From the IMG/VR virus record IMGVR_UViG_2778261246_000001, positions 1-35,852 of that record: a DNA stretch of 35,852 bases. One strand, written 5' to 3'. Source of the stretch: a virus (lineage: Duplodnaviria; Heunggongvirae; Uroviricota; Caudoviricetes). Positions within the stretch are counted from its first letter, which is position 1; each line of letters starts with the position of its first letter. Of the stretch, positions 1-18,723 are shown piece after piece. Made by a program: the position numbers and the translations under genes. The notes beneath the pieces were generated by a model. The model ran no database searches and was not told the origin of the DNA. It saw only the letters and a list, made by a program, of their open reading frames with translations.

Positions 1-46
1 TCTGAGGCAGCACCTGGCACGGCTGGGACGGAAGTCGCTGTCGTTC

Positions 47-976
47 TCAAAATCGGTGGAGCTGCATGACAAAGTCATCGGGCATTATCTGAACATAAAA
101 CACTATCAATAAGTTGGAGTCATTACCCACTTTTCCTTTAAGTTCCGTATAGAGAGCGCCAAGTGTATTTTTATGATCTTCCACTTCCTGGCGAAGTGCT
201 GTTGTTTCCCCGGTGCTTTGTGCCTGCTCAATACGTTCACGGAAAGCATCGATCCAGTTTTCCCCGGCATCCTGCTCAATAATTGTTGTTTCACGTTCCG
301 CGCGGCAAGCGGAAGTGTTTTTATGTTCCTGAACCGGATTAATGATTTTTTCCTGTGGCTCGTCCAGTTCGTCCCTGGTGTACACTCCAAGAATCACTTC
401 GGGGCAATAAAGGCGCGCCCAGCGTTTCAGCGCCAGATAGGCAAGCTGCTGGCGAGGATCGTCGGCCCATAGCGTTGAATTACGTGTTCTGGCCTGCGCC
501 AGAAGTAATTCCAGTACGCGTGGTTTACTTTCGCCGCGTAGTGTTGCCTGGACACGAACACCGATCCCGTTTTCATCGGCCAGCTTCCAGCCAGGTACAC
601 GATATTCTTTCCCTTTGTCGCTCTTCCTGATTTCAAATTTCCCGATAATTTTTTCCCACGGCCCGAACCAGTCATATTCAATACGCCCGGTTAGCGGCCC
701 ACGAGTACTGATTACGGCATTAACCAGTTGCGCTTCATATCCGAGCACACCATTCACAACGAAAGTTTTCTGAGCTACTGCGTAAGGGTTCATTTGCCAC
801 TGCATCGCCTGCATGGTGATGGCCATGCAGTCTGATGGATTTCCCCGGAGGTGTTCCGGTACAGTAGCCATGCCGGAAGCCATTACCTGGGAAAATGTCT
901 GAATTGCAGCCAGGGACTGAGGGCTGAAAACCGCAACATTAGAGTTAATATTTTCTTGTTGAGTTAATTCGTTCAT
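47..976 (-). CDS. recT: Phage single-strand annealing recombinase, RecT-like partner of RecE (309 aa)
   Basis: Full-length ORF directly downstream of recE on the same strand; recE stop TGA (988-990) is followed by SD AGGAAGG and the ATG at 974-976. Family assignment is from synteny with the Rac recE-recT pair; the sequence itself differs from the K-12 RecT I recall, so the family is unconfirmed. Confidence 0.6.
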
Positions 977-10622: not shown

Positions 10623-10768
10623 CGAGATTAAAGTGCATTAGTTCAGATGCAAATTGACATTTTGTGGCACAGGGTAGAGCTAGCGTGGTTGTCCGCTTTG
10701 TGCCAACAGCGGACATTATAGATGGTATATGTAGAAAGTGAACATGCGTAGATTGTATGATTTAGCCG

Positions 10769-11578
10769 TCACTTAATTATTGGATAACTCACACAAGTAT
10801 GACCGTTGCTTATCGCATACATTTGGTTTCCCTTAAGATTTACAAATGGAAATGTCGTATACTCATAATTTATAGAGGTCATATTAAATGTAAGGAATTT
10901 ATCTTCAAGTTCTAATTTTGTAGAGTGGGCAGGGTATGTTCCTTCATTTTTCATTGTGATAATAAAACCGATAGGAAAAAAATGTAAAGCACAAATAAAT
11001 GCCACATGTCCTTCGTTCATAAATGCTACACTTTGAGCGGATATGTGCATTCTGTGTGGGTAAAACCAGTAGTAAATATCATGAGTTTCCTCAAAACTTG
11101 AATTTTTACCCAAAACATAATCCTTTAAAGGTGTATAGAAGGGGCTATCTACGGGTTCTTTTTTACAATCTTCAACTGAAGTTGCTGATAGCACGTGCCC
11201 AATCATAGCCTTAGTGAAAGATATGCTATCAAAAGGTATTCTAATGAATGGATATACATTCATACCATTCATATATCGACTTAACTGTTCTTTAAAGGAC
11301 TTTGTTACATTTTCAATTGCAACATCGAGCCCACCTAATACCTTATTGTTACAGTGGCTGCAAATGGTTCTGAAATAAGAGCCATTTTTAGCATTTAATG
11401 GTTTAACTGGTTCCTGAATACCAAAAAATTCGCTAACTGTTTTCTGCAAAACAGGGCCTAAGGTTATGGCGCACTTTGGAGGAACATGATCTTTTGTGAG
11501 CAAGCCATATTTCCCACAAATATTGCAATAACCTTCAGTAATGCCATTGTGCTTCCATCGTTCACTAATTTTCGTCAT
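10769..11578 (-). CDS. HNH-nuclease-like zinc-finger protein with uncharacterised C-terminal domain, 269 aa
   Basis: Intact ORF with SD GAGGGA 7 nt upstream; N-terminal C18-x2-C21...D30-H31-VPPK...C73-x2-C76-N77 is consistent with a bba-Me/HNH fold; sits alone in an AT-rich island. Confidence 0.6.
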   Translation of the reverse strand: MTKISERWKHNGITEGYCNICGKYGLLTKDHVPPKCAITLGPVLQKTVSEFFGIQEPVKPLNAKNGSYFRTICSHCNNKVLGGLDVAIENVTKSFKEQLSRYMNGMNVYPFIRIPFDSISFTKAMIGHVLSATSVEDCKKEPVDSPFYTPLKDYVLGKNSSFEETHDIYYWFYPHRMHISAQSVAFMNEGHVAFICALHFFPIGFIITMKNEGTYPAHSTKLELEDKFLTFNMTSINYEYTTFPFVNLKGNQMYAISNGHTCVSYPIIK

Positions 11579-11762
11579 TTTTATTCCCTCAGTAGCATAA
11601 GCTATCTATACGTTTTTTAATCCTATCAAAGATACAACTTAACGTCAGGAAAATGATAGTGTTTATCTAAGTAATACAATTAACTTCAACGCGTGACAGT
11701 CTGCTTTTCGCTCAAAGCGGACTAGAAGGTTAGCTTGCGTCGGACTTGGCGTATTTAAAGAA

Positions 11763-11987
11763 GTGCTGGTGGTGACTGGTTGTTGTGTTCCATTTCTACA
11801 GAATAAAATCACAGAAACTATACCCAATAGTTGTATTGAATCACTGACGAGACAGCCTCATATTTATCAGGACTGGTGTGCGTCTAATACAGGGGGTTGT
11901 CGTGCTGGTTCTCAAATGTGCGCTGGCTATTGCGGCTGTAATGGCAATTTATTGTCTTGCTGTTGTTCTTATGGAGCGGCTTTCTGA
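11763..11987 (+). CDS. Questionable small Cys-rich ORF (74 aa, GTG start)
   Basis: 11 Cys in 74 aa (..CASNTGGCRAGSQMCAGYCGCNGNLLSCCCSYGAAF); no ATG start and no convincing SD; may be a TG-rich chance frame. Confidence 0.15.
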   Translation: MLVVTGCCVPFLQNKITETIPNSCIESLTRQPHIYQDWCASNTGGCRAGSQMCAGYCGCNGNLLSCCCSYGAAF

Positions 11988-12138
11988 TTGATTACATACT
12001 GGCTAGAAAAAAGGTGTTACCTTGGTTTATCTTTGTCCGGCAAGGTGCGCTCATTAATCTTAAGTAAATTTATTGCTCAAGTATTCAGATTACTTCTTAT
12101 GGTTGAAGTCTCCTGTCAATGTAGAACCAATATATTTA

Positions 12139-12175
12139 CAAAAATGAGACCCGTCGGGGATAGCCCTGCCGGGTC
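12139..12175 (-). terminator. Putative rho-independent terminator downstream of the YeaR-like gene
   Basis: Arms AGACCCG / CGGGTCT (12146-12152, 12169-12175) with a T-run on the minus strand (complement of 12139-12145). Confidence 0.4.
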
Positions 12176-12205
12176 TGACTGTTAAAGCATTTTTAATATG
12201 ATCAT

Positions 12206-12544
12206 CTATTTTTTGGTGCTATAGACTTTTTCGCCCGAGAAGTCTGGAGCGACCCAAAAGTTAATATTAAACTGAGCATCATCGCTTAGTTCAACACGGT
12301 GCCAGTATTGTGGTGGGCTTGTTGCAAAAGCGCCAGCATTAATGACTACTTTTATCTCCGGTTCAGTAGCATTCTCATCAGTAAAACCATAATATGTTAC
12401 AGTGCCTTCCATTACGCACAACTGCCCAAAAACACCTGCTGCTGTATTATGATGTGTTAATAACGCTGAAGGTACGTTCTCTTTTGTGAAGAACGGAGTT
12501 GAGCGTTTGATTACCCAATCTTTAGGAATTCTCTTGTGTGTCAT
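12206..12544 (-). CDS. YeaR/DUF1971-family protein, about 112 aa
   Basis: Aligns by eye with recalled E. coli YeaR (RSTPFxxK...GxVxYxGxxDExxxEPxxxVxIxAGxFAxxPPxxWHxxExxxDxxFNIxFxVAP); strong SD GAGGAGG 5 nt before the internal ATG. Confidence 0.6.
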   Translation of the reverse strand: MTHKRIPKDWVIKRSTPFFTKENVPSALLTHHNTAAGVFGQLCVMEGTVTYYGFTDENATEPEIKVVINAGAFATSPPQYWHRVELSDDAQFNINFWVAPDFSGEKVYSTKK

Positions 12545-13357
12545 AACCACCTCCTCAAAAACATGCATTATAAATGCGTGTTTTTGAGGGTTATGTCAAG
12601 CTGTTATGAAACACATAATTGATATGTTGATTAGAGGAGAAGATATAATAAATATGGTTGTTTTTCGTATAACTATTTGTTTTACTTTTAGTTTATGCAT
12701 TCTGTGTGTTAGGAATAAGTTATTAAAGTTTAATAAAAAAATCTCGATGTAGTCCACATAGATTATTGTTACTGAACCTTATTGTGTGTATTAGTTGTGT
12801 TCTGAAATTTCAGCTTAATTATTTATGATGTATTTTTTAACGATAAATATTTTCCCAGGATACCTTTACTGTGTATATAAATAAATTATATACACATAAA
12901 TAATGTAAAGGCGTCCTTTTAGATATATCTTATCAAATGTTAATGACTTGAGTGGGAAATATGATTCCAGCAACTTATCATGTGGCTACTTTATAAAAAT
13001 AATGCCCATATAAAACAACAAGCGAAAAGGATTACGGATAAAAAAGGAGCGAGATGTGCGAACTTGTTATTTTCCATGTTTAACCACCTTAAATAATTGA
13101 TGATGACGGGATGATTGCATCTGTAATGCTTTTATTGAAATGTTATGATAAAAAAGAACTTTTGCATAACATTAAAATGTAATTTATCTAATCGTTTTTA
13201 ATAATAAATGTCGTATTTCTATCCTTGTACCAGCTATTTGATATGTAGTGTTTGTTCATGCTATGTGGGGCTTTACACCATAGCCAGTTTATTTATACTT
13301 TATTCGTCAGCCTGAACAACTGGCATCTGCTGCGCTGCGCCATCGAGAGATTGAGAA

Positions 13358-15113: not shown

Positions 15114-15189
<76 letters not shown>

Positions 15190-15192
15190 TAT

Positions 15193-15267
<75 letters not shown>

Positions 15268-17128: not shown

Positions 17129-17265
17129 AATCTTAACTACAATATGATTCATTTTGATGATTGTTTCATAAGGAACAGTGAAGTAAGATCTAAGAGGAGT
17201 TAAATTTTATACAGTATAATCATAATATTGCAGCAAGGTGGTTATAATTGAAAGAATATTTAGAT

Positions 17266-18723
17266 ATGAATACATCTCATGTAAGAGTTGTTACTCATAT
17301 GTGTGGGTTCTTGGTTTGGCTTTATAGTCTTTCAATGTTGCCACCAATGGTTGTAGCATTGTTTTATAAAGAAAAAAGCCTGTTCGTTTTCTTTATAACT
17401 TTCGTTATATTTTTTTGCATTGGTGGCGGAGCGTGGTATACAACTAAGAAATCTGGCATTCAATTACGTACCCGTGATGGGTTTATTATAATTGTAATGT
17501 TTTGGATTTTGTTTTCTGTTATTAGTGCATTCCCTTTATGGATTGACTCAGAACTTAATTTAACGTTCATTGATGCTCTGTTTGAAGGGGTTTCTGGAAT
17601 AACAACAACAGGAGCAACTGTAATTGATGATGTTAGTTCATTACCTCGGGCATATTTGTACTATCGGTCACAGTTAAATTTTATAGGTGGTTTAGGAGTT
17701 ATTGTTCTGGCGGTTGCAGTATTGCCATTATTGGGTATTGGTGGTGCAAAGCTTTATCAGTCAGAAATGCCGGGGCCATTTAAGGATGACAAACTCACTC
17801 CCCGCCTGGCCGATACGTCACGGACACTGTGGATAACTTATTCTTTATTAGGTATTGCTTGTATTGTCTGTTATAGACTTGCAGGAATGCCTTTGTTTGA
17901 TGCTATTTGTCACGGGATTTCCACAGTTTCGCTTGGTGGTTTCTCAACTCATAGCGAGAGTATCGGATATTTTAATAACTATTTGGTTGAGCTGGTGGCT
18001 GGTTCTTTTTCCCTGCTATCGGCTTTCAACTTCACTCTTTGGTATATTGTTATTAGCAGAAAAACGATAAAACCTTTAATCAGAGATATTGAACTTCGTT
18101 TCTTTCTGTTAATAGCCTTAGGGGTGATCATTGTTACCTCTTTCCAGGTCTGGCATATAGGTATGTATGACTTGCATGGAAGTTTTATTCATTCGTTTTT
18201 TCTTGCCAGCTCCATGCTCACTGATAATGGTTTAGCTACGCAGGATTATGCAAACTGGCCCACGCACACGATAGTGTTTTTGCTGTTGTCAAGTTTCTTT
18301 GGGGGATGTATAGGTTCAACCTGTGGTGGAATTAAGTCACTTCGATTTCTTATACTTTTCAAACAAAGCAAACACGAGATAAATCAGCTTTCTCATCCCA
18401 GAGCGTTGTTGAGTGTAAATGTAGGAGGGAAGATAGTTACAGATCGTGTAATGAGGTCTGTATGGAGTTTCTTTTTTCTTTATACTCTCTTCACGGTGTT
18501 TTTTATACTGGTGTTAAATGGTATGGGATATGATTTTCTTACATCATTTGCAACAGTGGCTGCATGTATTAATAATATGGGATTAGGTTTTGGGGCTACT
18601 GCATCGTCATTCGGAGTGCTTAATGACATTGCAAAGTATTTAATGTGCATAGCTATGATTCTTGGTCGCCTTGAAATTTATCCTGTTATTATATTGTTTT
18701 CAGGTTTTTTTTGGCGCTCCTAA
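17266..18723 (+). CDS. trkG: TrkG potassium uptake protein (TrkH/TrkG family), 485 aa
   Basis: Polytopic membrane protein matching recalled Rac TrkG (MNTSHVRVVTHMCGFLVWLYSL...); markedly AT-rich relative to neighbours (moron). Confidence 0.85.
   Translation: MNTSHVRVVTHMCGFLVWLYSLSMLPPMVVALFYKEKSLFVFFITFVIFFCIGGGAWYTTKKSGIQLRTRDGFIIIVMFWILFSVISAFPLWIDSELNLTFIDALFEGVSGITTTGATVIDDVSSLPRAYLYYRSQLNFIGGLGVIVLAVAVLPLLGIGGAKLYQSEMPGPFKDDKLTPRLADTSRTLWITYSLLGIACIVCYRLAGMPLFDAICHGISTVSLGGFSTHSESIGYFNNYLVELVAGSFSLLSAFNFTLWYIVISRKTIKPLIRDIELRFFLLIALGVIIVTSFQVWHIGMYDLHGSFIHSFFLASSMLTDNGLATQDYANWPTHTIVFLLLSSFFGGCIGSTCGGIKSLRFLILFKQSKHEINQLSHPRALLSVNVGGKIVTDRVMRSVWSFFFLYTLFTVFFILVLNGMGYDFLTSFATVAACINNMGLGFGATASSFGVLNDIAKYLMCIAMILGRLEIYPVIILFSGFFWRS

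Follow-up and report, generated by a model that had tools for sequence, protein, structure and literature searches.

DUF1971 proteins, YeaR among them, are encoded by some of the most strongly NO- and nitrate-induced genes of E. coli and Salmonella, and we know of no biochemical activity for them. The described system closest to the gene analyzed here is the DUF1971 gene next to nhaB-dsbB in Salmonella enterica, which we take to be STM1808 on the basis of the LT2 map, where dsbB is STM1807. STM1808 is reportedly an NsrR-repressed zinc metalloprotein that promotes systemic infection, and its residues H32 and H82 are said to be required for zinc binding and NO resistance. PMC7527575 lists it as a "putative cytoplasmic protein; NsrR regulon" and, with reference to Karlinsey et al. 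2012 (Mol Microbiol 85:1179), ascribes to it a part in virulence. The yeaR-yoaG operon of E. coli is likewise NsrR-repressed and NO/nitrate-inducible and is dispensable for NO scavenging in CFT073 (PMC5320621), and YeaR has been linked to stress resistance in UPEC (PMC4959519). The yeaR gene shares a transcript with yoaG; its activator NarL uses a 7-2-7 site at -43.5, and the NsrR site of yeaR overlaps this NarL site (PMC10853779). Two further proteins with solved structures are relevant, a standalone DUF1971 protein of Aliivibrio fischeri (PDB 3DL3), a structural genomics entry named "tellurite resistance protein B", and Haemophilus influenzae TehB (PDB 3M70), whose N-terminal DUF1971 domain is joined to a SAM-dependent methyltransferase. 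The stretch of DNA compared with these systems, called the window throughout, is 35,852 nucleotides long and carries a DUF1971 gene on its minus strand.

Domain content and nearest relatives of the phage protein

The gene occupies the following positions in the window.

12206-12544, minus strand: DUF1971 coding sequence, 112 aa, single-domain cupin of the 3DL3/Salmonella dsbB-adjacent subfamily

The ORF runs from an ATG at 12544-12542 to a TAG stop codon at 12208-12206 and encodes a one-domain protein of 12.6 kDa. A preliminary description of the window had proposed this minus-strand ORF as a gene, and it is real, being exactly the CDS annotated by RefSeq, under WP_000149055.1, at an E. coli locus of 100% identity. 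A longer ORF of 120 aa starting from the ATG at 12568 lacks a Shine-Dalgarno sequence, and all homologues start at the position of the MTH or MSH. Membership in DUF1971, which had been assigned by eye, was borne out by a full-length Pfam match to PF09313 (score 92 bits, cutoff 23.1, E 2.3e-26, all 80 profile positions covered). The protein has the small cupin fold (double-stranded β-helix) of the solved DUF1971 members.

In order to place the protein within the family, it was compared with the described members and with database relatives. Identity to E. coli K-12 YeaR (PDB 3BB6), with which it has the DUF1971 domain in common, was only 41% by BLASTP (E 8e-32), whereas identity to 3DL3 was 78-80% (E 3.5e-59) and to the Salmonella gene next to nhaB-dsbB 79%. 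Database searches delineated a tight subfamily with 72-82% identity, comprising members from Vibrionaceae, Shewanella and Agarivorans together with many Enterobacteriaceae (Kluyvera, Leclercia, Citrobacter, Klebsiella, Raoultella and Salmonella); the phage protein is 73-82% identical to 14 members of other genera ranging from Vibrionaceae to Enterobacteriaceae. Across 16 diverse members, 56 positions are invariant, including H31, H32, C43, H82 and E85, with H31, H32 and H82 present in the window protein. STM1808 is of equal size to the phage protein, with the 79% identity extending over the full length, and shares H32 and H82 with it; the residue numbers reported for STM1808 match the alignment positions exactly. 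The phage gene is thus of the 3DL3/Salmonella dsbB-adjacent type and distinct from YeaR. The YeaR-like assignment of the preliminary description holds for the shared DUF1971 domain but not for orthology to YeaR, considering the 41% identity, the lack of a yoaG and the lack of a NarL 7-2-7 site.

We consider it highly improbable that the gene is an equivalent of YeaR or TehB, which would make it either a NarL-dependent, nitrate-activated gene like yeaR-yoaG or a tellurite-resistance determinant. The domain is indeed common to YeaR and the N terminus of H. influenzae TehB, and RefSeq names the gene "TehB family protein" in some genomes and "DUF1971 domain-containing protein" in others. However, the only NCBIfam match, to the TehB model NF008992, scored 49 bits against a cutoff of 303 and was limited to positions 11-106 of 289 in the N-terminal part; the phage protein therefore consists of the DUF1971 domain alone, and a TehB-type methyltransferase was ruled out by domain content. 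The ORF list of the window shows no yoaG-like ORF 3' of the gene, and a delta-yeaR UPEC mutant was not tellurite-sensitive (PMC4959519), both of which speak against such an equivalence.

The members of the subfamily also differ in genomic setting. A position directly 3' of nhaB-dsbB is shared by the genes of Salmonella, Citrobacter, Klebsiella, Raoultella and Yokenella. The Salmonella gene has a stable chromosomal context, and the 3DL3 gene of A. fischeri is chromosomal as well, whereas the copy analyzed here is prophage-borne. The dsbB locus of E. coli K-12 has no DUF1971 gene, with umuDC and hlyE standing there, and a DNA search of all complete E. coli genomes, able to pick up sequences down to about 65-70% identity, returned only prophage copies (95% identity or higher). 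Within the Kluyvera-Leclercia clade, at least eight different chromosomal contexts hold the cassette, which suggests that the gene and its operator move as a unit.

The variable cargo slot of Rac-like prophages

The window is a full-length Rac-like E. coli prophage. It shares 99.98% identity with a Rac-type prophage integrated next to ttcA in E. coli LR-21-1, which confirms the earlier placement of the gene inside a prophage. The prophage carries intR, recET, kilR, sieB, racR, ydaS/T, ydaV and genes for DUF1627 and DUF977 (lygF) proteins. Past the cargo region lie DUF1367, YbcO and Q-like genes, two tRNAs, lysis genes and trkG, and genes for terminase, portal, capsid, tail, Lom and tape-measure proteins. 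An Rfam search of the window at gathering threshold returned only the two tRNAs (15114-15264). The DUF1971 gene is found in the cargo region.

10650-13350, no strand: variable AT-rich cargo slot (24-42% GC) between the DUF977/lygF and DUF1367 genes, from the composition profile

The slot spans 2.7 kb and contrasts in composition with the phage backbone (about 50% GC); the DUF1971 cassette occupies its right-hand part, and the gene itself has about 41% GC. It is oriented against both the early and the late phage operons. Related prophages carry different cargo in the same slot; pro147, Evi, Tritos and mEp460 lack the DUF1971 gene, and the induced phage vB_EcoS-666R9 has it. The cargo to the left of the gene varies as well, being a 269-aa protein in this window, Hok/Gef and KilA-N in strain elppa5, and a cluster of SIR2, NTP pyrophosphatase, adenosine deaminase and TetR genes in strain 98197. 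The 269-aa ORF, 627 bp from the DUF1971 gene, is real, as had been described, but its designation as HNH-like was not supported by Pfam (HNH_5, E = 0.29); searches of Pfam, PDB and PADLOC gave nothing significant for this protein.

These features agree with the earlier proposal that the gene is a moron. It is an extra gene of deviant composition, present in some related phages and inserted between conserved genes, it runs counter to the phage operons, and it has promoter-like and terminator-like signals of its own, namely a TTGACA -35 hexamer with two -10 candidates and a hairpin followed by a U-run. The accompanying remark that such cargo is unusual was not sustained, since stress-protective genes on prophages are not unusual in themselves. 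The sodCI gene of Gifsy-2 in Salmonella is a temperate-phage gene of the antioxidant or anti-immune-effector type that the repressed prophage expresses to the advantage of the lysogen. The present case differs from sodCI in the protein and the stress concerned, and here the cargo brings a predicted operator for the host NO sensor.

It is distinctly unlikely, in our assessment, that the cupin acts in phage development or phage-phage conflict (host or phage modification, defense or anti-defense) instead of NO protection. Such a function would fit the presence of Hok/Gef, KilA-N or the SIR2 / NTP pyrophosphatase / adenosine deaminase cluster in the slot elsewhere, the existence of a PHROG family for the protein, to which no function is attached, and the finding that cupin/JmjC hydroxylases are its nearest structural neighbors outside DUF1971. 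Nevertheless, PADLOC found no defense-model match for either the DUF1971 protein or its 269-aa neighbor, and membership in a defense system was rejected on this ground. The gene faces against the phage operons and shows a predicted operator for a host stress regulator and no phage control signals, its nearest relatives, spread over more than 50 species, are chromosomal genes in housekeeping contexts that have this operator too, and its distribution is independent of the adjoining cargo.

Candidate promoter, predicted NsrR operator and terminator-like hairpin

Consensus scans missed the promoter and terminator signals of the phage gene, which were assessed by eye, from alignments and by RNA folding. 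The following features were identified.

12594-12599, minus strand: -35 hexamer TTGACA, perfect, by direct sequence reading
12567-12576, minus strand: -10 region inside the predicted NsrR site, two candidates, by direct sequence reading
12560-12582, no strand: predicted NsrR operator, 23-bp 11-1-11 inverted repeat, AACACGCATTTATAATGCATGTT on the gene strand, with its end 15 nt from the ATG
12550-12556, minus strand: Shine-Dalgarno sequence GAGGAGG, 5 nt 5' of the ATG, by direct sequence reading
12140-12176, minus strand: intrinsic-terminator-like hairpin and U-run, 30 nt past the stop codon, by RNA folding

The two -10 candidates are a poor CATTTA at 17-nt spacing (12576-12571) and a perfect TATAAT at a non-canonical spacing of 21 nt (12572-12567), and the promoter scan, which used 16-18 nt spacing, called nothing at the gene. 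In chromosomal orthologues the -35 hexamer aligns with TTTACA or TTGACG at an equal distance from the NsrR site, followed by TATTTT or CATATT as -10 element at 17-nt spacing. The strong Shine-Dalgarno sequence noted in the preliminary description is present, and GGAGG is kept at its position in the upstream alignment of orthologues. The downstream hairpin terminator was also recovered, as an interrupted, G+C-rich hairpin at 12176-12147 followed by UUUUU at 12144-12140, with a predicted dG of -19.4 kcal/mol (z = -2.08 against shuffles). The interruption of the stem is why a simple terminator scan missed it. With this candidate terminator directly after it, the gene is most likely monocistronic, as is STM1808.

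According to PMC5320621, NsrR recognizes a consensus in which AANATGCATTT forms an 11-1-11 inverted repeat. The preliminary description had named 12545-12650 as the interval in which an NsrR or NarL-type site might lie, and of the two only the former is found there, the promoter region containing the repeat AANATGCATTT-N-AAATGCATNTT expected of an NsrR regulon member at 12560-12582. The predicted operator has two mismatches to AANATGCATTTNAAATGCATNTT and is the sole match in the 35.9-kb window, with 0.01 expected by chance. For scoring, a symmetrised PWM was built from 26 ChIP-seq-derived CFT073 sites (Table 4 of PMC5320621). The predicted operator scored 20.1-21.1 bits, within the range of validated sites, and ranked fifth among the known NsrR sites under leave-one-out scoring (yeaR 20.7 and hmp 17.5 bits). 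The top score in 100 shuffles of the whole window was 17.8 bits, below that of the predicted operator, and among dinucleotide shuffles of the local intergenic region (30% GC) 5 of 3000 reached its score (p ~0.002). With a near-consensus predicted NsrR site lying over the promoter, the gene looks like cargo wired into the host nitrosative-stress response.

The arrangement can be compared with the described genes. A near-consensus NsrR site just upstream of the ATG is shared with the Salmonella dsbB-adjacent gene, the S. diarizonae orthologue having an NsrR-like site of 20.4 bits 27 nt upstream of its ATG, whereas the operator-to-ATG distance is 15 nt in the phage gene and 25-27 nt in genes of the Salmonella type. 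Unlike the phage gene, the 3DL3 gene of A. fischeri ES114 has no NsrR site upstream (8.2 bits). In yeaR the NsrR site overlaps the NarL site and the -35 region, whereas the predicted phage operator covers the -10 region; also unlike yeaR, the phage gene lacks both a NarL site and a yoaG, and its -35 hexamer matches the consensus. Within 300 nt upstream of the gene we found no NarL 7-2-7 site beyond chance, with NarL heptamers at or below shuffle expectation, and no FNR box, and the yeaR site TAACCAATAAATGGTA (PMC10853779) has no counterpart there. These results weigh further against equivalence with YeaR, since nitrate activation in the manner of yeaR is not expected without such sites. The expected mode of control, as read from the upstream sequence, is simple NsrR repression.

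The upstream region also shows a minor feature in other species. Orthologues of the Kluyvera/Leclercia clade have a Fur-box-like element 64-66 nt upstream of the ATG. The phage copy of this element has seven mismatches, equal to background, and Fur control of the phage gene was rejected.

In order to examine conservation of the operator, we scored the 250 nt preceding each of 80 orthologues, which came from different species. An NsrR-like site of at least 14 bits was present at 53 of these loci. Every enterobacterial orthologue examined had an NsrR-like site 15-27 nt before the ATG, in each case the best-scoring site in its ~12-kb locus, and these sites scored 20-30 bits with the exception of one locus at 12.5 bits. 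Most Vibrionaceae orthologues had no NsrR site in the 250 nt scored, which argues that the family as such is not tied to control by NsrR. The layout of -35, operator, Shine-Dalgarno sequence and ATG is common to the phage gene and the Kluyvera-Leclercia-Pantoea clade, which also has the highest protein identity to the phage protein (82%). Among phage-borne copies, the operator is kept in five E. coli prophage or phage copies that represent three further alleles (21-28 bits) and in 35 of 35 IMG/VR contigs with upstream sequence (17.8-28.4 bits). In total, eight operator alleles were found on genes 97-100% identical to one another (E. coli and IMG/VR), with the changes mainly at degenerate positions. 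The allele of the window is among the weakest of the prophage alleles, at 21 bits compared to 25-28 bits for most others, and its left half-site reads ACGCAT, not ATGCAT.

Proposed role in lysogens, distribution and selection

Taken with the operator, the prophage setting and the relationship to STM1808, the phage gene is reasonably likely to be an NsrR-derepressed, monocistronic moron of a Rac-like temperate phage that improves the NO tolerance of the lysogen. In an unstressed lysogen, the host [Fe-S] repressor NsrR would occupy the predicted operator and block RNA polymerase. NO arising from host iNOS or from the nitrate/nitrite respiration of the cell itself would nitrosylate the cluster of NsrR, causing the repressor to leave. 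The derepressed σ70 promoter would then yield a short monocistronic mRNA, independent of the phage repressor RacR, that would be translated efficiently from the strong Shine-Dalgarno sequence. The product, a putative metal-binding cupin, may support growth under nitrosative stress by analogy with STM1808. E. coli lysogens would in this way gain a second DUF1971 paralogue beside YeaR, one that is chromosomal in Salmonella, Citrobacter and Klebsiella. Points that weigh against this reading are the ambiguous -10 element, the comparatively weak operator allele of the window, the AT-rich surroundings that H-NS may silence, the lack of an NsrR site in most Vibrionaceae orthologues, and the dispensability of yeaR-yoaG for NO scavenging in CFT073.

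Of 5426 complete E. coli genomes, 457 (~8%) had the gene at no less than 95% identity, and a 201-bp promoter fragment was found in 452 genomes. Some part of the region is matched by 2441 genomes, of which only about 450 carry the DUF1971 gene. All E. coli genomes that were inspected have the gene in this slot of a Rac-like prophage, and 34 IMG/VR contigs carry it as well. The constant unit consists of the gene and ~800 bp upstream, while the adjoining cargo varies.

The domain assignment in RefSeq and the existence of an NsrR-regulated DUF1971 paralogue in Salmonella are already known. In the literature on DUF1971, STM1808 and NsrR with prophage, our search turned up no account of an NsrR-regulated DUF1971 gene carried by a prophage. 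We believe two points to be new, that E. coli and Shigella obtain an STM1808-type gene only via Rac-like prophages and that the cassette brings a conserved yet polymorphic predicted NsrR operator. A wider proposal, which we put forward tentatively as a possibility, is that a gene and operator cassette, disseminated among E. coli and Shigella by Rac-like prophages, plugs into the host NsrR regulon and supplies NO tolerance of the STM1808 type, with operator polymorphism tuning repression in each lysogen. If such a portable NsrR cassette exists, its carriage should measurably raise fitness in an inflamed, NO- and nitrate-rich gut or urinary tract, making the gene a candidate fitness factor for Rac-like prophages, which occur in E. 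coli isolated from humans, pigs and poultry. The prophage contribution would switch on only when the host meets immune-derived NO, and the locus would be a clean example of a moron bringing the operator of a host global regulator. Binding of NsrR at 12560-12582 is a direct, testable prediction, and the phage-borne copy offers a natural gain-of-function experiment, as isogenic lysogens would differ by one STM1808-type gene.

The phage gene is under purifying selection. Synonymous sites are saturated against all chromosomal orthologues, dN against them is as low as 0.11-0.15, and the two main prophage alleles differ by six synonymous and one non-synonymous changes in 100 codons (dN/dS 0.04), which together indicate that selection has acted on the gene while on phage. 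This bears on whether the cassette could be a silent passenger, H-NS-silenced or weakly promoted and useless to phage and host, with the NsrR site a relic of the donor. The AT-rich surroundings may allow H-NS silencing of the region (24-42% GC), no canonical promoter was called at 16-18 nt spacing, the operator and -10 allele of the window depart from the chromosomal consensus, and the gene is carried by only ~8% of E. coli genomes. We nevertheless regard a useless passenger as unlikely. Despite saturation at synonymous sites the protein remains ~80% identical to its orthologues with all invariant residues intact, and the low dN/dS between prophage alleles, the NsrR-like character of all eight operator alleles, and the retention of a strong Shine-Dalgarno sequence and a terminator argue against it and are consistent with the moron reading. 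The codon composition of the gene also differs from that of its enterobacterial orthologues, with a GC3 of 35% compared to 44-65%, which together with the saturated synonymous sites points to a capture that was either old or from an unsampled donor.

Predicted regulatory sequences upstream of the DUF1971 gene

The predicted operator for the host NO-sensing repressor NsrR (12560-12582 in the window) was compared with the equivalent site in loci L084, L086-L088 and L090-L125. The operator, together with the few bases leading up to the Shine-Dalgarno (SD) sequence, showed variability far above that of the coding sequence and of the 130 bp of flanking DNA. Eight operator alleles were identified among 34 IMG/VR contigs in which the DUF1971 genes are 97-100% identical, and all eight kept an NsrR-like site scoring 17.8-28 bits. 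Tuning of repression is one possible reason for this diversity, and recombination among the alleles is another.

In L004-L025, which are chromosomal orthologues from a clade of Kluyvera, Leclercia, Pantoea, Enterobacter, Silvania and Buttiauxella, a Fur-box-like element was found just 5' of the -35 hexamer, 64-66 nt before the DUF1971 ATG. Compared to GATAATGATAATCATTATC, the element carries 2-6 mismatches in the loci of this clade, with 5-6 mismatches overlapping the background range, and about half of the loci have 2-4. Photobacterium loci L056 and L076 also harbor such an element, and in the prophage copy it is degraded. Its presence hints at dual iron/NO control in the orthologues that carry it.

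The variable cargo slot and its 269-aa ORF

In Rac-like prophages, the interval bounded by the DUF977/lygF and DUF1971 genes is a swap site, and its cargo differs from one prophage to another:

Window 10650-12200; L084 9400-11500; L085 10100-13200: swap slot
Window 10769-11578, minus strand: 269-aa ORF with CxxC...DHVPPK...CxxC motifs

In E. coli strain elppa5 the slot contains Hok/Gef and KilA-N, and in strain 98197 a cluster of SIR2, non-canonical NTP pyrophosphatase, adenosine deaminase and TetR genes. The slot has the look of a hotspot for defence genes or morons.

The preliminary description had called the 269-aa ORF HNH-like; the motifs bear this likeness by eye, and Pfam did not support the assignment, returning HNH_5 alone at E = 0.29. 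Searches of PDB, PADLOC and NCBIfam gave no match for this ORF, which falls into PHROG 21495. Since it is present in phage pro147, where the DUF1971 gene is absent, it is cargo independent of that gene.

Small hydrophobic ORFs

Window 12991-13077, minus strand: unannotated 28-aa hydrophobic ORF, MENNKFAHLAPFLSVILFACCFIWALFL, preceded by a strong SD (AAGGTGG)
Window 11878-11991, plus strand: 37-aa hydrophobic ORF, MRLIQGVVVLVLKCALAIAAVMAIYCLAVVLMERLSD, inside segment 11709-12003

An AT-rich spacer of 810 bp lies upstream of the DUF1971 promoter; the 28-aa ORF is located within this spacer and is followed by a long AT-rich inverted repeat (about 12912-12862). It is conserved in elppa5; its coding status is doubtful because all five nucleotide differences from that strain are non-synonymous. 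The segment housing the 37-aa ORF (plus strand) is common to phages mEp460, Evi and Tritos at 87-96% identity. A Pfam search with this ORF gave no match. It might encode a toxin or a small membrane peptide, or it might be of no significance.

Other prophage features

Window 1-127: IS1 end, abutting recT
Window 13272-13299, plus strand: sigma-70-like promoter match TTTACA-16-TATACT (10 of 12 positions)
Window 15114-15264: prophage-borne tRNA-Thr and tRNA-Gly genes
Window 17248-18723: trkG, a potassium transporter gene and another known Rac cargo gene

The promoter match, the best sigma-70-like one in the cargo region, precedes the DUF1367 gene by about 60 nt, and rightward transcription may start again from it beyond the cargo island. 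Whereas IS1 abuts recT in the window, it lies inside the lysozyme gene in the otherwise identical prophage of E. coli strain LR-21-1.
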